A DNA stretch of 64,000 nucleotides from an uncultured Nitrososphaerales archaeon (GCA_963841565.1 CAWJCY010000006.1:1-64000); one strand, 5' to 3'. Counted from the stretch's first letter, positions 1,194 through 47,785 are shown. The notes: generated by a model from the letters alone, not told the origin. Made by a program: numbers and translations.

Positions 1194-1685
1194 TTGTCTG
1201 TTAATAATGGCGATAAGGGGAAGCATCCAACAGAATCTGAAGCAGAGATGATTGTAATGATGTCGCCTTCTCACGCTAATCCTAAAGGGAATGTCTTTGG
1301 GGGAGTGATACTAAAACATGTGGACCTTATTGCGGGTTTAGTAGCCAAAAGGCATTCGGGAAGGGCGAATGTCGTCACCGCAAGTATTGACAGAATGGTA
1401 TTCCTGAAGCCAGTCTTTATAGGAAACGCACTCATTATTTCTGCTAAAATAACATACGTTCGTAGGTCCTCCATGGAAATCGAGGTAAATGTCGAGGCTG
1501 AGGACCTAGACGACAACACCAAAGTGCATGCGGCTACTGCATTCGTAACAATGGTAGCCTTGGACAAGTATGGGAAGCCTTCGAAGGTTCCCCATTTAAT
1601 TTTGGAGGATGATAATGCCAAAAAGAGGTATAGCGAGGGTGAGTTAAGGATGAAATCCAGACTTAAGGATGCAGGAAAGATATAA
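1194..1685 (+). CDS. Acyl-CoA thioesterase (hotdog fold, YciA-like)
   Basis: HANPKGNVFGGVILKHVD, VVTASID, FVTMVALD..GKP motifs. Confidence 0.85.
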   Translation: MSVNNGDKGKHPTESEAEMIVMMSPSHANPKGNVFGGVILKHVDLIAGLVAKRHSGRANVVTASIDRMVFLKPVFIGNALIISAKITYVRRSSMEIEVNVEAEDLDDNTKVHAATAFVTMVALDKYGKPSKVPHLILEDDNAKKRYSEGELRMKSRLKDAGKI

Positions 1686-1799: not shown

Positions 1800-2435
1800 C
1801 TACCATTTGGAAACTTTGATAACTTCAAATGCTTCTGCGTATTTTGCATTCATTTGATACCCCCTGTAAGAACATCTTCCTTCTAGCGAATCTATCCACA
1901 AAGGCCCACATCGGATTTTTTGAGAATCAAAACAGTCAAGCGCGTTTCTTTTGATTTCTAAGGTTTCAGTGACGTCAACATAGAGTTGAGGTCTAAATGC
2001 ATGTTCACTAATACCTCCTGGAATAGTGGTTTCGTACATAAATACATCGTTAGAATCGCGAGCTGCCGCTACAACTGCTCTTGTTAAAGATTGATGGTCC
2101 TGATGTGTGTCACCGATCCACTGAGTAAATATAGCCTCAGGATTTAGTTCTTGGATTATCTTACTGATTTGAGTAACAAACTTTCTGTTGAATACGATTT
2201 CTTCAGGACTAAGATCGAGAAATTCTGGCGTTTTACAACCCATAACTTTTGCGGACATAATAGATTCTTGCTTGCGCTCCTCTTTAGTATCAGTCTTTAC
2301 AAAGTTTGGAAGAGTAGCAATAACCAGTCTCACGTCATAACCCATTCCGGCCAATTTCGCTACTGTTCCTCCCATCCCGATTTCTATATCATCAGGGTGT
2401 GCCCCAAATGCGATCATTAGTCGATTTTTTGTCAT
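1800..2435 (-). CDS. PIG-L/LmbE family N-acetylsugar deacetylase
   Basis: GAHPDDIE and DTHQDH metal-binding motifs; YAEAF C-terminal motif. Confidence 0.9.
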   Translation of the reverse strand: MTKNRLMIAFGAHPDDIEIGMGGTVAKLAGMGYDVRLVIATLPNFVKTDTKEERKQESIMSAKVMGCKTPEFLDLSPEEIVFNRKFVTQISKIIQELNPEAIFTQWIGDTHQDHQSLTRAVVAAARDSNDVFMYETTIPGGISEHAFRPQLYVDVTETLEIKRNALDCFDSQKIRCGPLWIDSLEGRCSYRGYQMNAKYAEAFEVIKVSKW

Positions 2436-2819
2436 ATCAAACCACCTAGTATACCATGAATTTTTGTGTACTTTTCGGAAAACTCAAAGGTGCAAAAAAT
2501 AGCTGAACTCCTCTTAATATACGTTTACATAGGACAATTCAAGTTTTATCTCCTTAGATAACACAGAACTAGACTCAACTCCAACAATTGCGGACGTTAT
2601 TTGTCGGGAATATTATATTTTCACGGTATTGCCAATACAAACCTGATTACAATCGTTGGGGGGGTTGCGTCAGAAGGGCTGCCGATGGACTTATGTTAGT
2701 TTTACGATTTGTCAGTGAAGTTCTTCCCTCCCTAGTGGAGCTTGTTCGCATATAGATTCTTCGGTATCTAGGCAATCGAAGTAATAAGGGAAGACACCTC
2801 TCATTTTTCATAATTTCCT

Positions 2820-3911
2820 TCCACTTGTCACACTTCGAATTGAAATAAAGATAATAATTTCTTCATACAAAACACGTTTAAGGCAATTCATGATTATGTA
2901 AACACAAATTGATTTAAACTAGTCCACTTGTATATATTTACATTCCAATATGGAGCTGATCTTTCGCCGATCTAAGCATTTTCTACATTCAATAGTAGAT
3001 ACAAGTGAGAATGAAAGTCAAACCCCCATCTCTACTCTTAGAGTATTGCACCAACCACTAATAGTTCGGAATGTAAGCATAGCAAATAGGATTCAGAATA
3101 TCCATAGAATTAAAGTACCTTCCAAATGCAGTACCACTTTGAAATTACTTCAAGATAATTTTTCAGCAATTGATGTGGAGGAATATGAAGTTGATGAGGA
3201 TGAGGATAAGGAAGATATCAAATCTAATGATAGCAATTCATCTAATGACGTCGAAAATAATAGTACTGCTGCTCGTAGTCATAACATACCAATTAAAGAG
3301 AATATGGATTATTTAGAAATACCACTAAATTCAGCCATACGGTATCAACAATCAGAAAAAGAAAAAAAGATCTTAATAAATCCAATCAAGTATCCTTGGG
3401 ACCTTCATTATGTAATTCAAAAGATTTTGCAAGAGGAAGTGACGCAAGTATCAATATCACCAAATGCATCAATATCCAAATCGACTGTTATTGATGGTCC
3501 ATGCATAATTGAAGATGACGTTACAATCGATGACTTTTGCAAAATAAAAGGACCCACGTATATTAGTAAAGGTAGTTTCATCGGGATGAGCTCGCTTATT
3601 AGAAACTGCATGATGGGTGATAAAACACGGATAGGATTCAACTGTGAAATCGCTAGGTCCTATCTGTTAGGTGGTGATAAAATTTCACATCAGAATGCTA
3701 TACTCGATAGCATAATAGGAGAAAACGTATGGTTTGGCGCGTATGCAGCGACTGTGAATGTTTTATCTAATAGACAAAAAATATCATACGAAATTGAGAA
3801 AGGCAAATCAATAGATACTGGAATAGACCGCTTTGGAGCCCTTGTCGGAAACAATTGTACTATTAGCACATCTGTCATAATCATGCCAGGAAGACATATT
3901 CAGGCTGATAC
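2820..3911 (+). repeat. 1.09-kb direct repeat, copy 1 (promoter region plus LbH acyltransferase gene)
   Basis: Near-identical to 7553-8644 at a constant offset of 4733 nt. Confidence 0.95.
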
Positions 3912-3960
3912 TATGATTCAAGCTTTATGGAAAACGTATGAAGTAAGCAGTAAGAGCTAG
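2950..3960 (+). CDS. GlmU-like left-handed beta-helix (hexapeptide) acyltransferase, copy 1; degenerate N-terminal nucleotidyltransferase remnant
   Basis: IKYPWDL linker, hexapeptide repeats, KISHQN..DSIIGENVWFGA and DTG.DRFGALVG as in the archaeal GlmU acetyltransferase domain; no LAAGxGxR motif. Confidence 0.75.
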   Translation: MELIFRRSKHFLHSIVDTSENESQTPISTLRVLHQPLIVRNVSIANRIQNIHRIKVPSKCSTTLKLLQDNFSAIDVEEYEVDEDEDKEDIKSNDSNSSNDVENNSTAARSHNIPIKENMDYLEIPLNSAIRYQQSEKEKKILINPIKYPWDLHYVIQKILQEEVTQVSISPNASISKSTVIDGPCIIEDDVTIDDFCKIKGPTYISKGSFIGMSSLIRNCMMGDKTRIGFNCEIARSYLLGGDKISHQNAILDSIIGENVWFGAYAATVNVLSNRQKISYEIEKGKSIDTGIDRFGALVGNNCTISTSVIIMPGRHIQADTMIQALWKTYEVSSKS

Positions 3961-4049
3961 CGTCAAACGACAGATGAACTAAAATACAGGCTATAGACTT
4001 CGAAAATATGTTATATGTATCATTCACAATATCTTGACAGCACCAGCCT

Positions 4050-4406
4050 ATGACAATTGGAGGTATGAATGTTGGAACAGACGTAATAGAAGTCAAACGA
4101 TTTCGGAGCAAACCACTAAATGACAGAAATACAGGATTCTATCATTCAGTTTTCACAAAATCTGAAATGATATATTGTGCTAAATTTTCTGACCCGTATC
4201 CTCATCTTGCTGGAATATTTGCTGCAAAAGAATCAATAATAAAGTGTTTGAACAAACCCACAAAAATGATTGATATAGAAATCATTCACGGACAATACGG
4301 AAAACCCTCTGCTGTTATTCATCGGAAAAGGAAGAACACCATTTCAACACGGATATCAATTTCACATACCAGATCACTTGCTATAGCAGTTGCAATAACT
4401 GACTAG
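4050..4406 (+). CDS. acpS: Holo-[ACP] synthase (4'-phosphopantetheinyl transferase)
   Basis: VGTDVIEVKRF, LAGIFAAKESIIK, GKP, ISISHT motifs. Confidence 0.88.
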   Translation: MTIGGMNVGTDVIEVKRFRSKPLNDRNTGFYHSVFTKSEMIYCAKFSDPYPHLAGIFAAKESIIKCLNKPTKMIDIEIIHGQYGKPSAVIHRKRKNTISTRISISHTRSLAIAVAITD

Positions 4407-4631
4407 ACCTTAACTTATGTTCATCTCCTAGCATCCGCAATGCAGTAAATATGAGGACCACAGTCAAATGGGTTTGAAGACATTGATAAAGTGTTAACAT
4501 TTCACACAACAAACTACGACCAATAGGTTCAGGCGGCGGCCATCTTCATATAGAAATTTTGTTTATTCATCAAATAGTGGACAAAGAATAACTACACTTT
4601 CCTTCAAAACAAAGAAGTGCATTTACAGTGA

Positions 4632-5024
4632 TTATCTCCCTGCCCCAGGTAAACCTAACACCTTTGTTGGTGACCTGTAATCTCCTTGGATATGTAATCC
4701 TTCGTTTGTAGTAACGCTAATCTTAGCAGGACTAGTATCGGGCTTGGGATAAAAAAAATATGATTGACCGGGCTTAAGTGATGACAAATTCTGAAGGTCA
4801 TCTTCTCCCAAATTCACTAGTATTCCGGTCACTTCACTTTGACCGATATTTGTAAGTCTGATTCTGTATTGCGTCCCAGAGATATCTGTAGTGTCCTTAG
4901 TCGGATCTAATTCAAGCGCGAACATCGGTCTATTAATATAACTATTGTAAAAATACAAAACGGTACCTCCTATTAGTATTGCAGCTATAATATAGTAGTA
5001 TCGTTGTTTGATCATTCTGACCAC
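4632..5024 (-). CDS. Hypothetical membrane-anchored protein with small beta-sandwich-like domain
   Basis: N-terminal TM helix followed by beta-rich IRLTNIG..L.PGQSY pattern. Confidence 0.6.
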   Translation of the reverse strand: MVRMIKQRYYYIIAAILIGGTVLYFYNSYINRPMFALELDPTKDTTDISGTQYRIRLTNIGQSEVTGILVNLGEDDLQNLSSLKPGQSYFFYPKPDTSPAKISVTTNEGLHIQGDYRSPTKVLGLPGAGR

Positions 5025-5818
5025 AATACACTTACATAAATCGATTATATAATAAGTTCCTTAGACGAGTTGCATTTAGATCGTCTCCGAGACTATGATA
5101 AGTAATCTCACCATCAAGTACAGAGATTCTTATGCTAGAAGGTCATACATATTCTATAATCTGATGTGATACTCACTGTACCATAGGCAATGCTGAATAT
5201 ATATTTACATTTTAAAAATTATGCCACAATGGGGAAAGGATTGTGGACAAATAACAGTCAGGGTGCCACTTATTACCGGCTTACGATTATGGAATAATCC
5301 AACTGAAATCTCAATGGGAAGATATAGCAATTATTATGAATCAGGGAGTTAGCACCTAATGTAGTCAGTCACTCTTCAAATGCTGTCCTATAAACTGCTA
5401 GTGGTATAGGTTTAACATATACTAGAGTACTCTTTGGTATTCAATGGTGTATTTACTAAGATTCTTATTTTTGAATTCGCATCAGCAAACATTCCTTTGA
5501 GAAAGACATAACCGAGATTTCGCTGGTGATGTGGGTAGCAATAATTTCAATTGCACTGCTGGATATACTTTGGGGATTTGTTTTCTAAGGATAGTTTAGC
5601 GGCTTTACCTCTAGCATGCGTCGAATTAGCAATACTATTTAAGGGGGTAATGAATAGTGGCCAAAACGGAATCTTTTGGTATCGAGGCGAAGATAGCTAC
5701 TTATGAGGCTCGTAAATAGATGCATTTTCGATAGATAATATTTCACTGAAGTAACGATAAGTGCATTCTATCCTAACTCACTTAAATCCGTTAGGCAATT
5801 ATTGGGAAGACAATAGGC

Positions 5819-6127
5819 ATGGATGATTCAAAACTGTTTTTTGTGACCAAAGTGACAGGGATTTTTGCTGTTCTGATGGTAGTTGGTGCATTCGCACTAT
5901 CTCAAACCTCGACAGTAGGCATTGTTTTTGGTGAGGCAGTACCGCTTATCCCAATCAATACAGGTAATTCTGTCCTAAACAATGAGCTTCCATTATTTTA
6001 CGACTGTATCGAAGAGGCTGTAGACAATAGTTTGTCGAGCACCGAGCCCAATTACTTTAAGAAAGAACCTACAAGAGCAGAAGTAAGAGGGTGTTATGAA
6101 GATACCATAGAAAATAATGGAAAGTAA
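5819..6127 (+). CDS. Small secreted two-Cys hypothetical protein
   Basis: Hydrophobic N-terminus; FYDC...TRAEVRGCY. Confidence 0.6.
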   Translation: MDDSKLFFVTKVTGIFAVLMVVGAFALSQTSTVGIVFGEAVPLIPINTGNSVLNNELPLFYDCIEEAVDNSLSSTEPNYFKKEPTRAEVRGCYEDTIENNGK

Positions 6128-6315
6128 TCAGGTGTCTTCGGGTACCTTATTGCGCATATAAAATTTGCAGAGCACAGAATCGATATAACTAATCTACAAT
6201 AGTGAAGTCCACGTAAACCAAGTAAATTAGGCGCCTCCTAACATTGTGACTAAGGCTCGCATTCGGTTCCTAAAGACTAGTGTAGTTCAATAAAGAATGT
6301 GGAACGGTTCTTAGA

Positions 6316-6450
6316 TCAATGGTCGTAGCCACAATCGATGCGTCGATGGTCTTGATGCTGCTCCGAACATGAAGGAAATAGAGGAGCTTCGTTCTGAACC
6401 ATGAACGATGTTCCGCATGAAGTACATTTTACTTTTTGAATTTCTTCCAT
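6316..6450 (-). CDS. 44-aa Cys/His-rich microprotein (zinc-ribbon-like), below ORF-track cutoff
   Basis: Manual translation MEEIQKVKCTSCGTSFMVQNEAPLFPSCSEQHQDHRRIDCGYDH*. Confidence 0.5.
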   Translation of the reverse strand: MEEIQKVKCTSCGTSFMVQNEAPLFPSCSEQHQDHRRIDCGYDH

Positions 6451-6723
6451 TTCTTCTGTCCATCATAAAATAGAGTCATTAAAGCGTTCAGCATATTCAA
6501 TGAATTGTGAAGAACAAAAAGTGAGAACTCTCATTTTTTCTATCGTTCCTATTATATAGAATACTAGTATGTTAGTTGGCCATTAGATCAGCACAACCGA
6601 ATAGAAGAATATTGACAAAGATATTGTTTGGAACGACGTTAAACCCTTCAGCACCGATTTGGTCACCTGAATGAATCAATGAAATTTGCTATCTGACAAG
6701 TTAGCAAATAACAATTAATTCTA

Positions 6724-6834
6724 TCAGAATTGTGTACCGCATTCCTTGCACTCTAGCCTATTCTTATTCTCAGGGCTTGGTGCAACATAAAGACTATTAC
6801 ATTGTGGACATCTTATCTCTGTTGCTGCTGACAT
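6724..6834 (-). CDS. 36-aa C(P)xCG-type zinc-finger microprotein, below ORF-track cutoff
   Basis: Manual translation MSAATEIRCPQCNSLYVAPSPENKNRLECKECGTQF*; two CxxC knuckles. Confidence 0.7.
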   Translation of the reverse strand: MSAATEIRCPQCNSLYVAPSPENKNRLECKECGTQF

Positions 6835-7552
6835 TTTAATAGCGTAATAGGCTTCCGCCTTTTTAATGTTTTCAAGCCAAATGAATCGATTTTGGAGGAT
6901 GCTGGTATTCAGTTTTGAATTGAATCAGTCAATCCAAAATTCGATATTTTAGTGTCCTGATGTGAAATAAGCGAACATAATTTATTCATGTGACAATACG
7001 GGTTCCCATGAATGTCTGTATTACTCTCGTCTGAGGTAATCGATGATCTAATTGTTAAATGGTAAAAATAGTCCCTTCCCAGTATTTCCAAACACCATGT
7101 ATCTTGGTGATCGTCATTACCTTAAGTTTGAGACATCTATCAATTCTGAAAATTCAGCTCCTACGACTGATCTTGATTAAATTTTTTAAGCTAAAGGCAC
7201 ATTGATTATGATCTTTTATGGTATTTGCTAGCGTACCAAGAGGTGTTGGAAAGACCAGAGAGCATTTTGCAGATTCTAATTTGAAGTAGGATCTAGATAT
7301 ACAGTATGCCGTATTAATTTTTGATAAGGAATTATAATGATACATAATAATTAAATAGAAAGAATAGACTTCGATATTTCATAAGAAGACTACCGCGAAC
7401 TCTCAGATTGAGGTGATAGTCTGAAAATAACGTCAAATATTCCATCCTTATAGGGAATATATCAAAAAATATGTGAATACAGATTCATTAAAGATACGGA
7501 TTTATAACAATTTCCGGTACTAACTTCGATCAGTATTTACCAAGCTCTTATC

Positions 7553-8644
7553 TCCACTTGTCACACTTCGAATTGAAATAAAGATAATAATTTCTTTATA
7601 CAAAACACGTGTAAGGCAATTCATGATTATGTAAACACAAATTGATTTAAACTAGTCCACTTGTATATATTTACATTCCAATATGGAGCTGATCTTTCGC
7701 CGATCTAAGCATTTTCTACATTCAATAGTAGATACAAGTGAGAATGAAAGTCAAACCCCCATCTCTACTCTTAAAGTATTGCACCAACCACTAATAGTTC
7801 GGAATGTAAGCATAGCAAATAGGATTCAGAATATCCATAGAATTAAAGTACCTTCCAAATGCAGTACCACTTTGAAATTACTTCAAGATAATTTTTCAGC
7901 AATTGATGTGGAGGAATATGAAGTTGATGAGGATGAGGATAAGGAAGATATCAAATCTAATGATAGCAATTCATCTAATGACGTCGAAAATAATCGTACT
8001 GCTCCTCGTAGTCATAACATACCAATTAAAGAGAATATGGATTATTTAGAAATACCACTAAATTCAGCCATACGGTATCAACAATCAGAAAAAGAAAAAA
8101 AGATCTTAATAAATCCAATCAAGTATCCTTGGGACCTTCATTATGTAATTCAAAAGATTTTGCAAGAGGAAGTGACGCAAGTATCAATATCACCAAATGC
8201 ATCAATATCCAAATCGACTGTTATTGATGGTCCATGCATAATTGAAGATGACGTTACAATCGATGACTTTTGCAAAATAAAAGGACCCACGTATATTAGT
8301 AAAGGTAGTTTCATCGGGATGAGCTCGCTTATTAGAAACTGCATGATGGGTGATAAAACACGGATAGGATTCAACTGTGAAATCGCTAGGTCCTATCTGT
8401 TAGGTGGTGATAAAATTTCACAACAGAACATATTGGTGGATAGCATAATAGGAGAAAACGTATGGTTTGGCGCTTATGCGGCGACCTTGAATGCTCTATC
8501 TACTAAACAAAAAATATCATACGAAATTGAGAAAGGCAAATCAATAGATACTGGAATAGACCGCTTTGGAGCCCTTGTCGGAAACAATTGTACTATTAGC
8601 ACATCTGTCATAATCATGCCAGGAAGACATATTCAAGCTGATAC
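7553..8644 (+). repeat. 1.09-kb direct repeat, copy 2
   Basis: Near-identical to 2820-3911. Confidence 0.95.
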
Positions 8645-8690
8645 ATTCGTGAAACCTGAAACAACCGTTGCCAAGAGCATAGGTCATTAA
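7683..8690 (+). CDS. GlmU-like LbH acyltransferase, copy 2 (His to Gln at the predicted catalytic position)
   Basis: Paralog of 2950-3960; KISQQN instead of KISHQN; different C-terminal tail. Confidence 0.75.
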   Translation: MELIFRRSKHFLHSIVDTSENESQTPISTLKVLHQPLIVRNVSIANRIQNIHRIKVPSKCSTTLKLLQDNFSAIDVEEYEVDEDEDKEDIKSNDSNSSNDVENNRTAPRSHNIPIKENMDYLEIPLNSAIRYQQSEKEKKILINPIKYPWDLHYVIQKILQEEVTQVSISPNASISKSTVIDGPCIIEDDVTIDDFCKIKGPTYISKGSFIGMSSLIRNCMMGDKTRIGFNCEIARSYLLGGDKISQQNILVDSIIGENVWFGAYAATLNALSTKQKISYEIEKGKSIDTGIDRFGALVGNNCTISTSVIIMPGRHIQADTFVKPETTVAKSIGH

Positions 8691-8999
8691 TTGTCAAGCA
8701 GAGTAGGTTGGTTACTGACACGATTCACAATTCGGCGAAATTGTTTCGATGGACTAACCGTTTGGGTTTAATTGGAAAGAACTTGCAGGGTGAACGAGAC
8801 CACGACTAAGGTCACAGATCATTTTCAATATGGTTCAACTTGACATCTGCATAAAAGCTTTCAGTAATTCAATTATGCACGATTGGGAACATACTCTCCA
8901 CGTTAATGTTCTGAATAAGGCAATATCGACATAGATCCAATCTCCTAGTCAATTATTCCGGAATCTATATAAGAATTCGACGCAAAGCAATCTAAGTCA

Positions 9000-10763
9000 A
9001 TGCAGTCGCAGGTGGAACCTAACCTATCGTACTTCATAGCGAAAGCACGATCTATAGAGGGCCGAATTTTCCAAAAGAAAATCAAAATAGCTATTCTTAG
9101 CAGCTTTACAATCAATGGATTAGAAGAAGCCCTTCGAGTTAAATGTGCAGAAAGAGACATAACCTGCGTGACTTATATTTGCGGATATGGTCAGTACAAT
9201 CAAGATATTCTCGATCAATCAAGTAAATTGTATGAATTCTCTCCTGATATTACTTTCATCCTTATCGACACCAGGACAGTCATGTCTACTTTTTTCTATA
9301 CCCCTTATACTGTACCCGTCCACGACAGGAGAAGTTACATAGACAAGCGCGTCGCAGATTTCGTGAATTTGGTCCGAACCTTCAAAAATAGAACGGACTC
9401 AAAATTGGTCTTGACTAATTGCAGTATCCCGACCTATTCACCTTACGGGATCTGTGAAGGAAGGTCTGAGTATGGTCTTAGGGAAATGGTTTATGATTTC
9501 AACGCCAAATTGTCTGATGCGTTCAGAAGTGACCCCCAAGTGTTCTTGTTCGATTTCAATTCTTTTGTGTCCAAATATGGCGAGCTCAATGTTTTAGATT
9601 ATCGGCAGTTTCTTGTCGGTGATATCAAGGTCTCCTTGAACCATATTCCTCACCTAGCTGAGGAATTAATGGGATATATCAAAGCGAACTTAGGAGTAAA
9701 TCGGAAGTGTATAGTACTTGACTTAGATAACACATTATGGGGTGGTATAATTGGAGAGGATGGGTTTGATCGAATTGACCTTTCATTAAAACCACCTGGT
9801 ATGGCTTTTGTGGAATTTCAGCGCGTACTTCTAGCACTATACCAAAGAGGTATAATTCTTGCAATTAACAGCAGAAACAACGAAGATGAGGCTTTAAGGG
9901 CTATTAGAGAACATCCATACATGGTTCTTCGAGAAGAAAATTTTGCAACTATGAAAATAAACTGGAGCGACAAAATTTCTAATATGAAAGAAATAGCAGA
10001 GGTATTAAATATTGGATTAGATAGCATTGTCTATTTTGATGATGATCCCATAAATAGGGAATTAATGTTAAAGGCCATACCACAGGTTATGACGGTCAAC
10101 TTGCCAGATGATCCATCTTTGTATGCTTCAACCTTGATGAGAATTAATGATTTTAACACCCTCTCCGTGACTAGTGAAGATAGAAATAGAGGTGCGATGT
10201 ACAAACAGGAACAGAAAAGAAATGAATTAAAGAATTCTGCTTCGAATTTGGAAGATTTTCTTAAGCAACTGGAAATCAGAGTGACGATGAAGAAAGCAAA
10301 TGATTTCACGATTCCGAGAATAGCTCAGCTCACGCTCAAAACAAATCAATTCAATCTTACCACGCGTCGTTATCAAGAAGAAGATGTTCAGATGTTTGCT
10401 CATGATCAAACCAAATTGATCGGGTGTGCACAAACCAAGGACAAATTCGGCGATAATGGTATTACCGGCGTATATATTGTTAACAAGAATCACACAGATA
10501 AAGAATGGTTCATAGATACTTTTCTGTTAAGTTGTAGAGTAATGGGGAGAGGCATAGAGGACGTGATGCTTGGATATATCTTGAATAAAGCGAAGGAGGA
10601 AGGGGTCGTAAAAGTCAAAGCTGAATTCATACCAACGAAAAAAAACAAACCATGCGAACAACTCCTGCCTAACTTTGGGTTCAAAAAGGAAGGAGAACAA
10701 TGGGTGTATACTTGTCAAGTACCCATTAAGCAGACAAGTCATATTGAACTAAATGAAGATTAA
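9000..10763 (+). CDS. FkbH-like HAD-IIIC glyceryl-ACP synthase with N-terminal extension and C-terminal GNAT-like domain
   Basis: VLDLDNTLWGG, YFDDDP, RIAQLTLKTNQFNLT, DKFGDNG, LLSCRVMGRGIE signatures. Confidence 0.92.
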   Translation: MQSQVEPNLSYFIAKARSIEGRIFQKKIKIAILSSFTINGLEEALRVKCAERDITCVTYICGYGQYNQDILDQSSKLYEFSPDITFILIDTRTVMSTFFYTPYTVPVHDRRSYIDKRVADFVNLVRTFKNRTDSKLVLTNCSIPTYSPYGICEGRSEYGLREMVYDFNAKLSDAFRSDPQVFLFDFNSFVSKYGELNVLDYRQFLVGDIKVSLNHIPHLAEELMGYIKANLGVNRKCIVLDLDNTLWGGIIGEDGFDRIDLSLKPPGMAFVEFQRVLLALYQRGIILAINSRNNEDEALRAIREHPYMVLREENFATMKINWSDKISNMKEIAEVLNIGLDSIVYFDDDPINRELMLKAIPQVMTVNLPDDPSLYASTLMRINDFNTLSVTSEDRNRGAMYKQEQKRNELKNSASNLEDFLKQLEIRVTMKKANDFTIPRIAQLTLKTNQFNLTTRRYQEEDVQMFAHDQTKLIGCAQTKDKFGDNGITGVYIVNKNHTDKEWFIDTFLLSCRVMGRGIEDVMLGYILNKAKEEGVVKVKAEFIPTKKNKPCEQLLPNFGFKKEGEQWVYTCQVPIKQTSHIELNED

Positions 10764-11002
10764 TGTCTGACAATCTTTTGGATATTATTGCTAATGTTAT
10801 GGAAGTACAGGTTTCTCAGATTGATGATGAGTCGGGACCCGAAACAATCGAAAATTGGGATTCATTCCGTGGATTGATATTATTTGAGGAACTTGAATCG
10901 AAATTTAATGTGAAATTTACTCTTAATGAATTACTAAACATCAAGAAAATAAAGGACATAAAAAATATCCTATCAGTACGCGGTGCATCGTTAAATGAAT
11001 GA
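10763..11002 (+). CDS. Acyl carrier protein
   Basis: 79 aa, acidic, NWDSF phosphopantetheine-Ser motif, ELESKFNVKF; start overlaps the FkbH stop. Confidence 0.85.
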   Translation: MSDNLLDIIANVMEVQVSQIDDESGPETIENWDSFRGLILFEELESKFNVKFTLNELLNIKKIKDIKNILSVRGASLNE

Positions 11003-11426
11003 TATCGCTATATCACAGTACACTCTGAATGATATTAAGGAGGGTCTTAAAAAATCGTTCAAAGTTAGTGTTACTGAATCAATGGTCAACGATTTTGCAA
11101 AAATTACTGGGGATTACGCACCAATGCACATGGACGAGGAGCACGCTAGCAAGACAGAATTCAAGCACAGAATATGCCATGGTATGCTTATTGGATCTTT
11201 CTTTTCGCGTTTAGTGGGAATGCATTTGCCTGGAGAGAATGGCCTGCTGCTTTCCTATACTAGCAAGCATCTTTCGCCTTGTTATCTGAACCAAGACGTC
11301 ATCGTCGACGGTGTAATCACAGGTAAGAGCGAATCTACAAGAATTATAACTATCAAGGCAACCGTAAGGGACGGGTTTGGAAAACTCTTAGTTGACGGGC
11401 TGCTGAAAGTGTTGGTTTTAAAATGA
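10995..11426 (+). CDS. MaoC-family (R-specific) dehydratase
   Basis: FAKITGDYAPMHMD...ICHGML hydratase-2 motif, LPG; overlaps the ACP stop. Confidence 0.88.
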   Translation: MNDIAISQYTLNDIKEGLKKSFKVSVTESMVNDFAKITGDYAPMHMDEEHASKTEFKHRICHGMLIGSFFSRLVGMHLPGENGLLLSYTSKHLSPCYLNQDVIVDGVITGKSESTRIITIKATVRDGFGKLLVDGLLKVLVLK

Positions 11427-11792: not shown

Positions 11793-12660
11793 TTATTCTT
11801 GCTGATCAAAAGGCAGGCCTGCACGCTTGTTATTTCTTTTAGAATTTGGCAAAATCCCCCGTTTGACAAATATGTCCCGGATAACACTTTCATTACGACC
11901 CTGATTTAAATTCTTGTCTGCGGTAATCAATGCATTTGCTGCATTCTCAAATGTTGCGAATCTATTAAGGAAAAAGTGATGAGCTACCACTAATCTATCT
12001 GCTGCATTACGACCTAATGCCGCCCTTAATTCCCACAAGCAAGTTGACCAGATCTCTCCGTCAGCATGAACTCATTTACAATATCCTTTGGATATCTTTT
12101 ATTACTATCGAGTCTTCTCAAACACTGCGGCCCGTCACCACTATAGACAACTGCATCCCAGTTGCCGATCGTGGGTCTTAAAATACTAGGTTTGATCTCT
12201 GCAAAGAAACTTGCTGCCAAATAGTCACCAAAAGCTTCCCCCATAGACCCAGCTTCATGGCTTTCACCCCAGCCTGGGACTTGATCGTCTTGGATGGCAT
12301 GACCATATTCATGAGCTATTATTTCAGCATCCTCGGCATCATCTACCCTCTCCAGTACCAAAAGTTAGATCTTTACCCGCTGGACTGTAATGAGAATTGT
12401 CATCAGTTCTTCCATCTATATTTACAGTAATTTGGTGGTTGAGAACATTGTTAAAACCAATCTGCTGGAGATAGCGTTGTATCCTGTCGATATGATAATA
12501 GACCATAACTTCCTTGAACCCACGATCGTTTCTGCTCAAAATGAATTGGTGGTTGGATCTTTCTGTTGGAGGTAGTTCTGGTACTGACAAAGACTCCATC
12601 AAGCGTACCAGAATCATCTAGATTTTCTAGAGTTACTTCCGATCCTTCTTGGTTCTATTT
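11793..12660 (-). pseudogene. M36/M4-like (fungalysin/thermolysin-type) zinc metallopeptidase, multiply frameshifted and 5'-truncated
   Basis: EVMVYYHID, DNSHYSP, IIAHEYGHAIQD...MGEAFGDY spread over three or more frames; no propeptide seen. Confidence 0.7.
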
Positions 12661-14512: not shown

Positions 14513-14736
14513 ATTTTCTTGTATATCCTATATTTCTACTCGCAGAAGTATATTCATTTCATTGGAGACTAAAAAAACCTTAAGCGATACTTCCGAATCC
14601 GGGGCATATATTGTTACTATAAGAGATCAATGGAGTGAATTTGTATTCCTTTCCAAAGCGGGAGAGATCACTGATAAGAAGCTTATTCAGCGTTATATTA
14701 GCGTATTCAAAGAAGATTTGCAGAGGGCATGAAATA

Positions 14737-15591
14737 ATGGTGTTGTTACCATCCCCTGGTCGGACGTCTGTTCCGTTGCTTGCTCTAACAGAAGATTTTG
14801 AGGAAAAGCTCACAGACACACTTTCACATTTGGAAGAGGTTCTTGTATATAACCATCTATTTTCTGGCTCTATTGAAGAGAAAAGAAGGGTCTTCGAGGG
14901 TGGAAAGGTTTATGAAGCAAAATGGATCTTTGAGAATGAATCCTTTAATAGGCCATTCATAATAACGACAACTCAAAGGCTGCTATATACAATCTTTTCA
15001 AATAATCACGGAGACAAGTTAAAGTTAGCATCATTTAGAAACTCCCTTCTAATTATTGATGAGGTTCAAACTATTCCAAAATACATACTAGGGATTTTGG
15101 TCAAAATCTTGGAGAGTATGCACAGATTCCTCGGAACCAAAACAATTCTTGTTAGCGCTACGATTCCATATGAATTACAATCAGTTCCTGTAACGCAGCC
15201 TTCTGAATATACAGAGAAATCGTATTTAGAATTGACTAAAAAACAAATAGACTTTCAACAATGGTTAAGTTTAGATCATGATTCACTAAAGAATGGCAGA
15301 ACATTAGTGATGGCCAATAGTAGAAGAAAAGCCGCTAACATCTATAATACAATAGTCAGGTGCTCAAACTGCCGCCATAACCATAATGAAAATAATTCTA
15401 GCGAAAAAAAGTTAAGGTGTCCTGATAAAAATTGTGGATGTGATGAATATTTGCCTGATACGCTATATCTTTCCTCAGGTGTTAGAAAGAGAGACAAGCT
15501 CAAAATTCTGAAGAGAATACATGCAAAAGAACGTTCTAAAGAAGAATACATACTTGTTTCAACGCAAGTGGTAGAAGCGGGAGTAATATGA
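14737..15591 (+). pseudogene. cas3: Cas3 helicase relic (HD domain, motif I and C-terminus missing)
   Basis: PLLALTEDF, IITTTQRLL, LIIDEVQ, LVSATIP, LVMANS, LSS, ILVSTQVVEAGV then stop; no Walker A or HD. Confidence 0.75.
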
Positions 15592-15673: not shown

Positions 15674-16201
15674 TTATGTTATACTTGAATATCTTGGGCT
15701 GGTGTACTCAAAGTGACCTGTATGATGCCCCTCCTCTATCCATTTCCACTCAAAAAACATGCCCTCTTGTTTTAGAGATCGTGTTAGTTCTTTGACTTTC
15801 GATAATGACCACATAGATTCTTCATACCCCAGCCAATCACCGTAGGAAATCCATCCTTGATTTCTGTAAATTCGTTCAGGTTTGTGTGGAATATCGCTAG
15901 GTTTCTTCCCTAATTTGCAGTACATATTCCATTCTATCTGGCTCTTCAATTTCAACGCACGTGCAAAAGCCCCAGCATCTTCAAAAGATCGAAATGTTAA
16001 ATTTCGTGTGGCAGTTCTTGCCGTGCCAAGCCAATCGTCAAATGAGATCCAGCCTCGACCCTTATACTTCTTATCAGGATTAGAAGGAATATTTGTAGGC
16101 TTCCTATCAGACTTGCAATATTTCATCCACTCTGATATGCTCTTTAATTTTAGTGATCTTACGTAAACTCGTGCTTGCATGAATGGTAAGAATTTTAACA
16201 T
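15674..16201 (-). CDS. Protein with two integrase-repeat-unit-like (INT_rpt) repeats; probably a fragment
   Basis: Two ~63-aa repeats F..AR.Y/F.R.LKLKS..EW..YCK...KP..IP..P...Y...GWIS..DWLG. Confidence 0.65.
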   Translation of the reverse strand: MLKFLPFMQARVYVRSLKLKSISEWMKYCKSDRKPTNIPSNPDKKYKGRGWISFDDWLGTARTATRNLTFRSFEDAGAFARALKLKSQIEWNMYCKLGKKPSDIPHKPERIYRNQGWISYGDWLGYEESMWSLSKVKELTRSLKQEGMFFEWKWIEEGHHTGHFEYTSPRYSSIT

Positions 16202-19045: not shown

Positions 19046-20005
19046 ATGCCTCTATCACTTATCGAAGCCATCCGAGACCACATCATGCTTTTTGATGGTG
19101 CGATGGGTACTGAGATTCAAAAACTTGATCCGCAGCCCCAGGACTTCCCTAGAAATAAGGACGGATTTAATGATGGACTCAATATGACCAAACCCGAGTG
19201 GATTAAGAAAATTCATCGGGAATACCTTAAAGCAGGTGCAGACTGTATCGAAACAAATTCATTTGGTTCTAATTTGTTCAAGCTCAAAGAATACGGCTTT
19301 GGAGATAAAACAGTAGATATTAACCGAGGAGCTGCCGAATTGGCAAGAGAGGTATGTAATGAATTTGAGGATCGATACCGCTATGTCATTGGTTCCGTAG
19401 GGCCTACAGGATTTTTGCCAAGTTCAGAGGATCAGGACCTGGGAAAAGTCTCCCCGCAACAAATTATTGAAGGATTTATACCGCAATTCGAAGGTTTACT
19501 CTTGGGGGGAGTTGACTCTCTACTGATAGAGACTAGCCAAGATATACTTGAAGTCAAGTTGGCAATTGAGGCCTGTCATAAAGCAATGCAGAACGTAGGC
19601 AAAAGAGTCCCTCTCATTGGAAACGTTACTCTGGATCGGTACGGCAATATGCTTTTGGGGACGGACGTGCAAGCAGCATATACGACAGTTTCTGACATGG
19701 GCATAGACATCTTTGGGCTCAACTGTTCCACCGGCCCCGAGGAAATGCTTTCAAGTATAAGATGGTTGGACGAACAAAACGGTTTGCCTATCCTAGTAGT
19801 TCCTAACGCGGGAATGCCACAAAATGTCGGCGGAAAGGCAGTATACAAGATGACCCCTGAAGACATGGCCCTAAAAATGCGCGAATTCATCAGGCAATTT
19901 AGTAGAATCAGGATTATAGGGGGTTGTTGCGGCACGACTCCTTTACATATTAACAAACTAAGAGAAATGTTGAAGGATAAAGGATTTACTGCCCCCAATA
20001 ACTAA
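19046..20005 (+). CDS. metH: B12-dependent methionine synthase, homocysteine-binding module
   Basis: LFDGAMGT, AGADCIETNSFG, GLNCSTGP, PNAGMP, IIGGCCGTTP. Confidence 0.93.
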   Translation: MPLSLIEAIRDHIMLFDGAMGTEIQKLDPQPQDFPRNKDGFNDGLNMTKPEWIKKIHREYLKAGADCIETNSFGSNLFKLKEYGFGDKTVDINRGAAELAREVCNEFEDRYRYVIGSVGPTGFLPSSEDQDLGKVSPQQIIEGFIPQFEGLLLGGVDSLLIETSQDILEVKLAIEACHKAMQNVGKRVPLIGNVTLDRYGNMLLGTDVQAAYTTVSDMGIDIFGLNCSTGPEEMLSSIRWLDEQNGLPILVVPNAGMPQNVGGKAVYKMTPEDMALKMREFIRQFSRIRIIGGCCGTTPLHINKLREMLKDKGFTAPNN

Positions 20006-20080
20006 ACCTACATGATATGCTAGTTATCTTCTGTTTTTTTTGTTTATGAAAATTAAATTTTGATTGATGGTTTGAATGAA

Positions 20081-22610
20081 ATGTCGATAACGCCGCGAGT
20101 GAGTTCAGCATTGAAGGCTGTGGATATCGTGCAGATCCCACCACCATTAATTATAGGAGAAAGACTCAACACTCAAGGCTCAAAGAAAGCCAAGGAACTA
20201 GTCCTTAGTAACGACTTTGATGGACTCCTTAAGTTGGCTAGAACTCAGGTTGAAGACGGAGCTCATTGCCTAGATGTTTGTGTTGCTACAACTGAACGCT
20301 CAGACGAAATGGAATTCATGACAATACTGGTCAAGAAGCTTAGCATCGAAATTGGGGCTCCCTTGGTCATAGATTCCACTGATCCGCTCGTTATTGAATC
20401 CGCACTAAGACAAATTCCTGGGAAACCCATAATAAACTCCATAAATCTAGAAGGAGATGGAAATCGATTTCATAAACTACTCCTCTAATGAGGAAATTTG
20501 GCGTTCCAGCAGTAGCTATGTGTATCGGTCCCCAAGGCATGGCGAAGACTGCGGAAGAAAAAGTTAAGACTGCTGAGCTGCTCTTCAATTCAGGCAATAA
20601 ATATGATTTAAAGCCCTGGCAGTATCTATTTGATGTATTAACTTTCACTTTAGCAACAGGGGAGACCGAATTTGTAAATTCAGCAAAAGAAACGCTGGAT
20701 GGGATACGACTAGTAAAGAAGAGATTTCCGGAAAGCTTCACAACTCTAGGGCTAAGCAATGTGAGCTTTGGTCTAGCTCATAATGCTAGGAAGATCCTTA
20801 ATTCGGTCTTCCTTTACCATGCATTACAATATGGTTTAGATACTGTCATCATAAATGCGAAGGATGTAATACCGTACGCTTCTATTAGCTCGCACGAGAA
20901 AAAACTTGCCGAAGATCTGATTTTTAATCGAAATAGTAATTCGCTAAGTGAATTTATTTCTTATTTCGAACGATCTACGACTACAGATAAGTATAGCAAA
21001 TCAACTAACAGACTAGAAGTAGATCCTTCGTGGGACGCCAGCCAGCGATGTTACTTCCGCATTGTAAATAGACTAAAAGAAGGAATTGAAAATGACGTCG
21101 TTGCTGCTATCGCCGAAAGATGTGACAAGAATGATGCAGTACTGGAGGAAAAGATTGATGAATTTGGCGTTTCTCACAAGGTTCTGCATAGCTCTAGTAG
21201 GGTTGCACACGAATCGGCTGTCAGAACCTTAAATGAAGTTCTGCTTCCTGCAATGAAAGAGGTTGGCGATAAATTTGGTGCAGGTGAAATCATCCTGCCG
21301 TTTGTTCTCAAATCTGCAGAGTGTATGAAGGCAGCAGTTGCAGAATTGGAGAAGTATCTGATCAAGCAGGAAGGGGTTACCAAGGGAAAATTGGTACCTG
21401 TACTGTGTATGGAGATGTTCATGACATCGGAAAAAATCTTGTTAAAACCATCGTGACCAATAATGGGTATACCGTTTATGACCTTGGTAAACAAGTAGGA
21501 CTTCAGACTTTAGTAGATAAAATAAAGGAGGTGAAACCTGATGCCGTGGGATTGTCTGCATTGCTAGTTTCAACTTCGAAGCAGATGCAATATTTTGTTG
21601 AATATGCCAGGACAAATGACATCAAGATTCCTATTCTATGTGGAGGTGCCGCAATAAATAGCAATTACATAAATCGGATAGCAAAGGATGGAGGAATTTA
21701 TGATACAGGGGTTTTCTATTGTAAGACAGCGTTCGATGGATTAAAAGTAATGAATAGTTTAACGTCAGATCAAAGAGAATCGTTCTTATCTGACTGGAAG
21801 CAAAAATTGAGTAAATGGAAAGATAATATTTCATATTCTAAAAAGGCTGACGTGTTACCTCATAGCAAGATAGTCCCAGTCACACCACCAAACCCTCCTC
21901 ACATTAACAAGATTATAAGAATCAATCAGAAAGATATTGATCTTTACGAGGTATGGAAGTTACTAAATAAAAAATCGCTATTTGTATTGTCATGGGGAAT
22001 CCGGGGTAAATCCATCAACAAGATAGAGTCAGATCCCGAAGCTCTGCTAATAGAATGGCAAGACAGAGTTGTGAAGCAGAAATTGTTTACGTGTAGCGTC
22101 GTTTATGGATATTTCAAATGCCACAATAGAAACAACGTCCTTCAGGTAGAGATTCCCGACGGTGCTGGAGACGTAAGTTTCGACTTTCCGAGATCATCAT
22201 TAGAGAAACACCTGTGCATTACAGATTACTTTGGTAAAAACGACATAGTTGCATTCCAAGTGGTTACTGTAGGAAAAAGAGCCAGTTCTGTTATTGAGGA
22301 ATGGAATCAGGAAAATAGATACACTGACGCTTACTATCTACATGGCCTTGCTGTAGAAACAGCTGAAGCGTTAGCAGAATGGGTTAATCACAGAATTAGA
22401 TTTGACTTGAATATCGTTCCGCCAAGGGGATTGAGATATAGTTGGGGGTATCCAAGCTGTCCAGATGTTTCTCAACATCACCTAGTTTGGAAACTTCTGG
22501 ATCCGTCTAAATCAGACATATTCCTTACGGAAGCCGGGCAGATAATTCCTGACCAATCAACTGCGGCAATAGTAGTCCACCATCCTGAGGCTGAGTATTT
22601 CGTCATCTGA
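20081..22610 (+). CDS. metH: B12-dependent methionine synthase, pterin/cap/cobalamin/activation modules; frameshifts near 20480 and 21398
   Basis: IIGERLNTQGSK, GLSNVSFG, GDVHDIGKNLV, RYSWGYPSCPD across three frames. Confidence 0.9.
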
Positions 22611-29055: not shown

Positions 29056-30221
29056 ATGTCAGAGAGCAAAATATTCAAAGATAGATCAAAGCTATCGCCA
29101 AGATATATTCCAACAGAGCTCCCTCATAGAGAAAGAGAGATAAACAGGATAAGAGATGTGTTTAAAGAGTCATACACAAACCCGGAAAAATTCCCTCTTT
29201 CCATAATACAGCTGATTGGTCCTGCCGGACTTGGAAAAACATCTAGTGTTCTCAAGGCTTCCAAAACTATAGCCGAGGAATTTGCTAATCACGGACATTC
29301 ACTCAATGTAGCCTATGTAAATTTGAAGCTCCAGGGCGGCAACAAGTATGGCATTTACAGATTTTTATTAGAAAAATTTGCACCTGATTTACCATCGCAG
29401 GGGCTCAGTGCTGAGGAGATGCTTAGATATCTTTTACATCATCTTCACCTGAAGAGGAAGTACGGTCTAATTGTATTAGATGAGATTGACTATTTAATCA
29501 AGACTACAAAGGATACTGGAATAATCTATGATTTGACAAGACTCAATGAATTTGAACCTGACAGTTCATGTGATGTGAAAGGAGTAATATTCATTGCCAG
29601 AAGTAAAGAATTCCACGGTAAACTGGACCAAGCTGAAATAGTACACTTGGTCGATTTCCAATGGAATTTTTTCCATACACTCTAGAACAGGTTACCGATA
29701 TATTGGTCAAGAGATGCTCTGAAGCATTTAATGACACAGCTATCGGATCGGACATGATCGATGAAATAGCAAAGATGACGATAATGCCGCACAACAATAG
29801 TGACATACGGTTTGCGCTAGATTTACTTCTCTATTCGGGAAATCTTGCCGAGGCACGAGCTATGGACAGAATAACACTTGACCAAATACGGGAAGTGTAT
29901 GGCAGAATAAGGCCCTCTATGACCCCTGATGACTTTAACGATCTATCAATGAATCAGACATATACGCTACTGGCCCTCGTTAGAACTTTGCGAATGAAAA
30001 AGAGGCAATATGCAGAACTTAAGGAGATACGACTATCTTCAATGGAACTGATGCAAGAATACAAATTAAAGAAGCTGGACATAGAAGACCACTTGCATGA
30101 TCTTCACACTAGAAAAATTATTGAAGTGAACTCATTGAGGGATATAGGAATACCATCTCAATCATTGGAAGAGCTTGAGTCAATGATTCAAAGAAAAGTA
30201 AAGCTAACACGACGACATTAA
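29056..30221 (+). CDS. cdc6: Orc1/Cdc6 replication initiator; frameshift near 29640
   Basis: LSPRYIP..LPHRE, GPAGLGKT Walker A, IVLDEID Walker B, FFPYT..Q..DIL..R, DIRFALDLL, wHTH tail. Confidence 0.9.
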
Positions 30222-44759: not shown

Positions 44760-47537
<2,778 letters not shown>

Positions 47538-47559
47538 GGGTACTGTGCCAGAGCAATAC

Positions 47560-47567
47560 TTTATAAA
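47560..47567 (-). promoter_or_regulatory. TATA box of the poly-Ala gene
   Basis: TTTATAAA ~25 nt upstream of GTG 47537, with A-rich BRE-like flank. Confidence 0.55.
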
Positions 47568-47785
47568 TATTTTTACGTGTAATATACAATAAGATTCTAC
47601 AGTGAGATATTGCATGAATGACGGGGACAACGTAAGAATATAGGGGGACGTTATGGCTATTATGGCTACAATTTCATTAGATGCTTTTTGTTTGTTAACG
47701 AAATATCGTTACAAGCATTTCTCTCAGACCCTGAATTCTTAAGTCTTCACCCTTTGAAAAATTCAGCGCAGTCTTCTAGTTTCCG

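Follow-up and report, generated by a model that had tools for sequence, protein, structure and literature searches.

The window analysed here comprises 64,000 nucleotides from an uncultured Nitrososphaerales archaeon (GCA_963841565.1, CAWJCY010000006.1:1-64000) and carries the archaeal markers eIF-6, Gins51, Cdc6 and S26e. The source names of near-identical proteins and contigs place it in the family Nitrososphaeraceae, and its host is a soil ammonia oxidiser; its own genome, which we call G000, is an assembly of 2.05 Mb that is 88% complete. We propose, with a probability of about 0.55, that six genes of this window form a self-contained carrier-protein cassette for the acylation of an amino sugar with a glycerate-derived group borne on an acyl carrier protein (ACP). 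They encode two left-handed beta-helix (LbH) acyltransferases, LbH-A and LbH-B, a holo-ACP synthase (AcpS), a long-form FkbH, the ACP itself and a MaoC-type dehydratase. We predict that they are organised as two transcription units, LbH-A-AcpS and LbH-B-FkbH-ACP-MaoC, with identical leaders, and the identity of the leaders suggests that the two units are regulated together. What the genes are, which catalytic positions and gene order are conserved, where the cassette lies and how the LbH pair arose were all computed here; every chemical step, the acceptor and the final product are inferred. All of the genes named in an earlier interpretation of this DNA (the sequence-only reading) were recovered in place by a list of open reading frames (ORFs) and by Pfam and NCBIfam searches. 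The features of the cassette are as follows.

2820-2949, plus strand: LbH-A upstream leader, copy A of a duplicated 130 bp (99-100% identical to 7553-7682)
2950-3960, plus strand: LbH-A, truncated-GlmU-type left-handed beta-helix acyltransferase, type A (Hexapep, TIGR03992)
4050-4406, plus strand: AcpS, holo-ACP synthase (4'-phosphopantetheinyl transferase), 118 aa (PF01648, TIGR00556)
7553-7682, plus strand: LbH-B upstream leader, copy B of the duplicated 130 bp (repeat with 2820-2949)
7683-8690, plus strand: LbH-B, type B paralogue of LbH-A (Hexapep, TIGR03992)
9000-10763, plus strand: FkbH, long form, 587 aa, with FkbH_N, a HAD-IIIC phosphatase domain and, in the C-terminal domain, a conserved Cys
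10763-11002, plus strand: ACP, 79 aa, WDS motif (orthologue profile against solved ACPs)
10995-11426, plus strand: MaoC-type hotdog (R)-hydratase/dehydratase (PF01575, E 3.7e-17)

Identity and conserved residues of the carrier-protein genes

FkbH matched TIGR01686 with 315.1 bits (E 4.9e-94, NCBIfam cut-off 146.65) and TIGR01681 with 70.5 bits (cut-off 35.75), and its residues 22-391 matched PDB 3slr (3e-49). The aspartates of its HAD motif I (DxDxT), D241 and D243, were invariant in 71/71 sequences, and C512 was present in 70 of the 71. According to the passages of PMC9057759 that deal with its mechanism, OzmB takes 1,3-bisphosphoglycerate (1,3-BPG) through phosphoglyceryl-S-enzyme and glyceryl-S-enzyme to glyceryl-ACP, and this mechanism, together with the conservation, suggests that C512 is the site of the glyceryl thioester. 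AcpS scored above the cut-offs of both PF01648 (E 9.2e-14, 51.9 bits, cut-off 25) and TIGR00556 (57 bits, cut-off 45.35), as did MaoC for PF01575 (62.5 bits, cut-off 27). The MaoC residues G39, D40 and H45 were invariant in all 46 orthologues, the Asp and His presumably being the catalytic residues of the hydratase-2 motif. The ACP falls under the Pfam gathering score for PF00550 (17.7 vs 20.8 bits). A profile of 37 ACP orthologues matched 65 solved chains, the best being 2lml (5e-12), with E. coli ACP at 8e-4; of these 65, the 60 displayed all bear the name of an acyl carrier protein or of an ACP-type subunit. W32 and S34, the latter the serine attachment site, were invariant in 37/37 orthologues. 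In G010, a further ACP-like gene with 80% identity to the cassette ACP was observed on the opposite strand downstream of MaoC (L003/L016, 3234-3470); no such second copy was found in the window.

FkbH overlaps ACP by 1 nt and ACP overlaps MaoC by 8 nt, which confirms the coupling of fkbH, acp and maoC claimed by the sequence-only reading. The reading frame is intact in all six cassette genes, and across the genus their orthologues are 78-93% identical with gene order kept. A TATA-like A/T-rich stretch lies ~20 nt upstream of the LbH-A ATG, inside the leader, and we read the leader 2820-2949 as a putative promoter.

The same reading had described the system as self-contained, with a dedicated acpS and with neither ketosynthase nor non-ribosomal peptide synthetase (NRPS) in the window, and our searches bear this out. 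AcpS was the sole PF01648 match, and hence the sole phosphopantetheinyl transferase match, in the G000 assembly, and FkbH was the sole TIGR01686 match. Searching the whole assembly with PF00550 returned no carrier protein at E <= 0.01, and PF00109 gave one weak match of 16.7 bits in a 392-aa frame. Among the window ORFs there were no ketosynthase or NRPS families (no ketosynthase, acyltransferase, condensation or adenylation domain of the assembly-line type), and none of the partner dehydrogenases, O-methyltransferase, FabH-like ketosynthase or polyketide synthase (PKS) of the methoxymalonyl and tetronate routes. Since the assembly has a single phosphopantetheinyl transferase, a single FkbH and no clear ketosynthase, AcpS and ACP appear to serve each other alone.

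Distribution and genomic context of the core

We found 407 FkbH relatives in species-representative genomes and fetched the best 80, chosen by similarity; of these 80 loci, the 52 with flanks of 800 bp or more upstream and 1500 bp or more downstream of FkbH were counted. Within this set of related loci, ACP followed FkbH in 52/52, and next came MaoC (32 loci) or a glyoxalase-fold protein of the Glyoxalase_4 family (15 loci; either one in 47/52). AcpS lay within 3 kb of FkbH at 40 of the 52 loci and an LbH of some kind at 30, which supports the idea of an acyltransferase partner travelling with the core. The arrangement FkbH-ACP-(MaoC or glyoxalase-fold)-AcpS recurs in ammonia-oxidising archaea, DPANN archaea and many bacteria, so that the view of the cassette as an archaeal one-off has to be corrected: it is widespread in ammonia oxidisers. 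In Nitrosopumilaceae loci we observed that the Glyoxalase_4 (VOC-fold) protein, of ~133 aa, replaces MaoC between ACP and AcpS, at ~9.0-9.4 kb in most; loci with this protein are L025, L027, L030, L032, L035, L037, L047, L053, L055, L056, L059, L061 and L062.

Within the order, FkbH was matched in 13 of 41 genomes, G000 included. Nine of 13 same-genus genomes had a match (the unpublished G013 among them), with further matches in another Nitrososphaeraceae genus (63%), in a genome of another family (56%) and in one fragment. As to synteny across the Nitrososphaerales, which the sequence-only reading had proposed as a check, the order LbH-AcpS/FkbH-ACP-MaoC is kept in G003 and, in rearranged form, in G023, and AcpS adjoins a type-A LbH in both of these genomes too. 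In a quick tree, all Nitrososphaerota FkbHs fell into one clade (SH-aLRT 99), including two contigs binned as bacteria that have the Nitrosopumilaceae gene order; the 12 Nitrososphaeraceae rows formed a subclade (SH-aLRT 100), and DPANN and bacterial sequences were mixed elsewhere. Because of this distribution and clade structure, the cassette looks old and patchily kept in the ammonia-oxidiser gene pool rather than recently imported here from bacteria.

The link to amino sugars, which had also been proposed earlier, is supported by the six loci examined from the Nitrosopumilaceae, marine and freshwater relatives (L014, L053, L031, L044, L026 and L048), all of which lie in amino-sugar clusters. 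Each has an LbH of ~178 aa divergent from FkbH, a NodB-type/DUF3473 deacetylase beside that LbH, an RmlA-like nucleotidyltransferase, a 4,6-dehydratase and GT2 glycosyltransferases. A GT4 enzyme is present in most, an FdtA 3,4-ketoisomerase in 4/6, methyltransferases in 4/6 and a DegT aminotransferase in 2/6. Judged by its genes, this set is a predicted dTDP-3-amino-3,6-dideoxyhexose pathway with an N-acyltransferase beside the carrier system. In the window there is no RmlB, FdtA, DegT or other such sugar gene near the cassette, and the case for an amino sugar in G000 therefore rests on the LbH genes.

Origin of the LbH acyltransferases

The best NCBIfam match of LbH-A and LbH-B was to the C-terminal half of archaeal GlmU (TIGR03992 positions 213-393, ~100 bits vs a cut-off of 292). 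Neither protein had a Pfam match to NTP_transferase; at the N-terminus another sequence stands in for the nucleotidyltransferase Gly-rich loop, and there is an acidic low-complexity insert at ~residues 78-108. The LbH proteins aligned to the LbH domain of ST0452, a GlmU from Sulfolobus tokodaii (E 1.5e-20), with the Asn at ST0452 position 331 kept, and ST0452 (full length, both domains) was the best fold match to a model of LbH-A of moderate confidence (pLDDT 66).

Of the 31 genomes of the family Nitrososphaeraceae, 18 have LbH homologues of equal length (12 of 18 genera). Fifteen of the loci are lone LbH genes with no AcpS or FkbH within 1.5 kb, and the lone LbH neighbourhoods in G014, G042 and G010 had no informative context in common. 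No fused archaeal GlmU was found in the six Nitrososphaeraceae genomes searched (G000, G003, G010, G014, G042 and G023), each of which has nucleotidyltransferase-only proteins of ~240 aa and separate LbH proteins. GlmU thus seems to be split in Nitrososphaeraceae, and the lone LbH would be the glucosamine-1-phosphate (GlcN-1-P) acetyltransferase half. Among the lone LbHs, the cassette LbHs formed a clade of their own (SH-aLRT 100), and the lone LbHs found in the same genus (G003, G010) fell outside it, in a tree whose root is unsure because the outgroups sit on very long branches. The pocket motif is FGAYAAT in the cassette LbHs vs FGGYSGT in the lone LbHs, and G003 and G010 retain a third, lone copy. 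Our reading is that a native acetyltransferase was probably duplicated and recruited to the cassette in place of the small Nitrosopumilaceae LbH. This GlmU-type ancestry therefore points to a hexosamine-1-phosphate as the acceptor.

Two LbH types maintained under gene conversion

LbH-A and LbH-B are paralogues, 95-96% identical, and lie in a direct repeat of 1.09 kb (2820-3912 and 7553-8645) that takes in the 130 bp before each ATG. In residues 1-244, the two copies of one genome share 98.8% identity in G000 and 99.6% in G003, and this part is only 87-88% identical between the two genomes in any type pairing. Residues 245 onwards show the opposite: A vs A is 94.6% identical and B vs B 98.9%, as against 74-77% for A vs B. 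The reversal argues that gene conversion homogenises the leader and the 5' three-quarters of the gene in each genome, with two 3' types persisting. Both types are also present in G003 and at locus L023 of another genus, so the pair is an old duplicate and not a fresh copy, and in at least two genera type A adjoins AcpS and type B adjoins FkbH despite an inversion. The residue aligned to ST0452 His308, which we take to be essential for acetyltransferase activity, falls inside the type-specific 3' part. It is His in LbH-A, whose tail reads ...IQALWKTYEVS, and Gln in LbH-B, whose tail reads ...FVKPETTVAKSIGH; the same Gln and tail are found in the B copy of G003, and the His is retained in the B copy of G006 and in the copy at the B position of L023. 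The sequence-only reading listed two LbH acyltransferases, both of them without an intact nucleotidyltransferase domain; this has to be amended, since the two go back to a single gene of a native LbH family that was duplicated and has been subject to gene conversion. The pair is, in our view, a clear example from nature of two catalytic variants kept apart while the rest of the gene is converted.

Independent support for the pair comes from short-read assemblies of relatives, whose contigs end inside this gene. We considered the possibility that the duplication is a recent assembly artefact. Contigs of the DNA run X1, which may be the source sample itself, join the B tail to FkbH and, separately, the A tail to the AcpS side; in an X1 contig the A-type flank ends loose at 7553. 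As both tails are separated in X1 and both types are carried by G003 and L023, we rejected the artefact.

Neighbouring genes and the insertion site

The remaining features around the cassette are as follows.

1194-1685, plus strand: 4HBT thioesterase (family scan)
1800-2435, minus strand: PIG-L deacetylase (PF02585, E 6.6e-21)
4632-5024, minus strand: orf130, small predicted membrane protein between the two units, cassette membership uncertain
5819-6127, plus strand: orf102, small predicted membrane protein, cassette membership uncertain

The sequence-only reading had made the PIG-L deacetylase a dedicated member of the pathway that frees the amino sugar for re-acylation, and neither part of this claim is supported. 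PIG-L adjoins the cassette in G000 and G003, but 27 of the 31 family genomes have it (23 of 24 high-quality ones; 55-75% identity), most of them without the cassette, and searches of two carriers, G023 and G011 (87% and 97% complete, respectively), did not find it. The cassette is located within a PIG-L...MetH...TrpBA block whose conservation does not depend on it: G014, which has no cassette, shows PIG-L in the same TrpBA...PIG-L...MetH block. The thioesterase is present in 22 of the 31 family genomes. PIG-L and the thioesterase are, to judge from this distribution, family-wide housekeeping neighbours of the insertion site rather than dedicated cassette parts. Moreover, a deacetylase would not be required with GlcN-1-P as acceptor, because GlcN-1-P already has a free amine. 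For the Nitrosopumilaceae loci, the linked NodB-type deacetylase keeps a route of deacetylation followed by re-acylation open. The match to PIG-L in G003 (L011, 17006-17639) changes reading frame at residue 125, owing either to a frameshift or to an error in sequencing.

Between AcpS and LbH-B is a gap of 3.3 kb that holds small ORFs only: orf130 (minus strand), orf102 (plus strand) and two zinc-ribbon-like mini-ORFs (6316-6450 and 6724-6834), whose zinc-ribbon matches are all below threshold. In G003, orf130 and orf102 occupy the same positions and are 90% and 88% identical, respectively; neither matched a Pfam family. An Rfam search of the window gave one tRNA only and nothing within 4406-7683. 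Contigs from RNA libraries of three studies matched AcpS, orf130, LbH, FkbH and ACP at 90-99% identity, a weak hint of expression since such libraries can contain DNA. They leave 5200-6450 and 6950-7450 bare, stretches that a DNA run covers, and are unusable for ranking or delimiting transcripts.

Proposed pathway and alternative explanations

In the pathway we propose, AcpS would turn the dedicated 79-aa ACP into its holo form. FkbH would take 1,3-BPG, dephosphorylate it to give a glyceryl thioester on the conserved Cys, and pass the D-glyceryl group to ACP. MaoC may then strip the C2 proton and the C3 hydroxyl of glyceryl-ACP to give 2-hydroxyacryloyl-ACP, of which pyruvoyl-ACP is the tautomer. 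The glyoxalase-fold, epimerase-like protein of the sister cassettes, which we take to resemble methylmalonyl-CoA epimerase, would also work on this C2 proton and might epimerise the glyceryl group. We infer this C3 chemistry, first glyceryl and then dehydrated, from the enzymes present. The LbH enzymes, as neofunctionalised duplicates of the lineage's stand-alone GlmU-type acetyltransferase, would put the C3 acyl on the amine of a hexosamine-1-phosphate (GlcN-1-P or galactosamine-1-phosphate), and a separate nucleotidyltransferase would then activate the product for a surface glycan.

Several points weigh against this pathway. No ketoreductase adjoins the cassette, so that a lactyl product, which would need a distant enzyme, is less likely here than in the bacterial versions that bear a short-chain dehydrogenase/reductase (locus L071); N-pyruvoyl sugars, for their part, are unusual. 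The FkbH substrate could differ, given the long form of 587 aa vs 366 aa in OzmB. LbH-B has no His at the catalytic position in G000 and G003, the lone LbH family is common outside the cassette (15 lone loci), and LbH-A and LbH-B are the only LbH-half GlmU matches in the 88%-complete G000, so one of the two could simply be the housekeeping acetyltransferase. Characterised GlmU-type LbHs use acyl-CoA, and none is known to us to have been shown to work with acyl-ACP, although no search aimed at this was made. No glycosyltransferase lies near the cassette within the window. Finally, as the 52 loci are related and were picked by similarity, the counts made on them are not independent trials and describe the family only. 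A complex prediction of three LbH-A domains with ACP, run without controls, scored 0.00 and has no bearing either way on binding.

Some of these points would also fit an LbH pair that is not fed by ACP, in which A and/or B are acetyl-CoA-dependent hexosamine-1-phosphate acetyltransferases and the C3-acyl-ACP goes to another acceptor through another transferase. GlmU and ST0452, as characterised, use acetyl-CoA; the lone family, found in 18/31 family genomes, is mostly without the cassette, and G000 has no other LbH-half match to archaeal GlmU. We consider it unlikely, though deserving of attention, because A stays by AcpS and B by FkbH across genera despite the inversion, because the cassette LbHs are a distinct clade with a pocket motif of their own, because in G003 and G010 a third, lone copy is there to do the housekeeping, and because other lineages also place an acyltransferase beside FkbH (30/52 loci). 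An acceptor that is a lipid or a small molecule seems to us improbable. Glucosaminyl-archaetidylinositol freed by the adjacent PIG-L is an example, the outcome being an N-acyl swap on the head group. The window does encode an inositol-1-phosphate synthase and a CDP-alcohol phosphatidyltransferase, PIG-L is adjacent in both G000 and G003, and a NodB-type deacetylase is linked to the cassette in all six Nitrosopumilaceae loci. Against this, PIG-L is distributed irrespective of the cassette, searches of G023 and G011, both carriers, did not find it, its position is part of a conserved PIG-L...MetH...TrpBA block, it is frameshifted in G003, and the nearest relatives of the LbHs act on sugar-1-phosphates.

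The FkbH/ACP pairs known to us as characterised serve PKS or NRPS systems, to judge from the relevant passages of PMC9057759 and from listings and abstracts, and the cassette might on that precedent supply an extender or starter unit (methoxymalonyl-ACP, a tetronate, a lactyl starter) for a polyketide or non-ribosomal product. We hold this to be very improbable in view of the window ORFs, which have none of the assembly-line domains, and of the single 16.7-bit PF00109 match genome-wide; partners of the FkbI, FkbK and FkbG type are not among the cassette genes, and the sister loci lie within glycan clusters. We give just as little credence to the cassette being decaying cargo with no present function. 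That idea draws on the several split genes of the assembly (MetH, Cdc6, M36 peptidase) and on the His lost from LbH-B, and it sits poorly with six open frames, invariant catalytic positions, orthologues conserved in sequence and order across the genus, and RNA-library contigs that cover the genes. Acylation of an amino sugar by way of the carrier protein therefore remains our preferred reading.

Relation to known systems

The cassette resembles the FkbH/OzmB type of glyceryl-ACP loading in having a HAD-IIIC plus FkbH domain with DxD and Cys and a small ACP next door. It differs in lacking an FkbI/K/G-type oxidation and methylation set, PKS or NRPS, its partners being MaoC, AcpS and LbH. OzmB has 366 aa as given in the relevant passage of PMC9057759; the 587-aa FkbH of the window has an extra FkbH_N, like B. 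fragilis BF1531 (PDB 3slr). With Sulfolobus tokodaii ST0452/GlmU, LbH-A and LbH-B share the LbH domain and the Asn at 331, and LbH-A alone shares His308. The window LbHs differ from ST0452 in having no NTP_transferase match, an acidic insert and, in B, a Gln, and their donor is presumed to be acyl-ACP and not acetyl-CoA. LpxA and LpxD are LbHs that move a hydroxyacyl group from ACP to a glucosamine derivative, and the window LbHs have weak NCBIfam matches to them; these matches are distant (E 1e-6 to 1e-10, far under the cut-offs), and LpxA and LpxD handle long-chain acyls for lipid A, which archaea lack. The dTDP-3-amino-3,6-dideoxyhexose N-acetyltransferases QdtC and FdtC are comparable to the ~178-aa Nitrosopumilaceae LbH beside FkbH in its RmlA/RmlB set; QdtC (3fs8) matched LbH-A weakly, the window LbH being GlmU-type and not QdtC-type.

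A flagellin-glycosylation locus of Campylobacter jejuni offers a further likeness, although this is a bacterial locus with a nonulosonic acid as its sugar. We take this locus to have ACP genes as well and to be tied to glyceric-acid-derived groups on pseudaminic acid. Its FkbH-domain gene is cj1302, a likeness by description, from the passage of PMC7099621 that concerns this gene; the papers searched yielded no enzymology on it.

Other features of the window

Just downstream of the cassette, a DEAD/Cas3-like helicase fragment (14635-15591) and an integrase-repeat-like protein (15674-16201) may be the remnant of a mobile or defence element. Genes split in the assembly are found at 12026-12617 (M36 peptidase fragments), 19046-22610 (methionine synthase, three pieces) and 29056-30221 (Cdc6/Orc1, two overlapping frames), and could be pseudogenes or assembly indel errors. 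Positions 44800-47630 form a GC-rich island (52-62% GC vs ~39% elsewhere) with a ~2 kb (GCT)n-type array and a 21-nt repeat in 9 copies; on its minus strand is a 627-aa poly-Ala/Gly frame with AGGEAPP repeats that matched no Pfam family.

Significance

Ammonia-oxidising archaea are among the most abundant archaea. ACP machinery had been described, in the passages of a 2012 review that address it (PMC3533463), as present in only a few unrelated archaea by transfer from bacteria. In contrast, we find a dedicated ACP/AcpS system in one well-supported clade of ammonia oxidisers, tied to glycan genes. N-glyceroyl pseudaminic acid is a known sugar, and in 2017 the relevant part of PMC5378307 named the genetics behind N-glyceroyl sugar decorations a major challenge; the cassette is a directly testable candidate for this role. 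The listings, abstracts and cited passages that we searched for FkbH in glycan contexts contained no enzymology, and those for FkbH in archaea contained no archaeal report, the five papers that mention both being, by their titles, on natural products. New here are the ammonia-oxidiser setting, the GlmU-type pair with its partial gene conversion, the split GlmU, and PIG-L as a mere neighbour.

A broader picture, which we put forward only tentatively and would not expect to hold in all its parts, is that ammonia-oxidising archaea widely use a route of ACP, AcpS and long-form FkbH to decorate their surface amino sugars with glycerate-derived C3 acyls. The transferase in Nitrososphaeraceae would have been made in-house from half of a split GlmU. 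Its A and B forms, distinct in the catalytic 3' quarter only, may be donor- or acceptor-specific, giving two N-acyl hexosamine-1-phosphates, or may assemble as a heterotrimer with a non-catalytic B.

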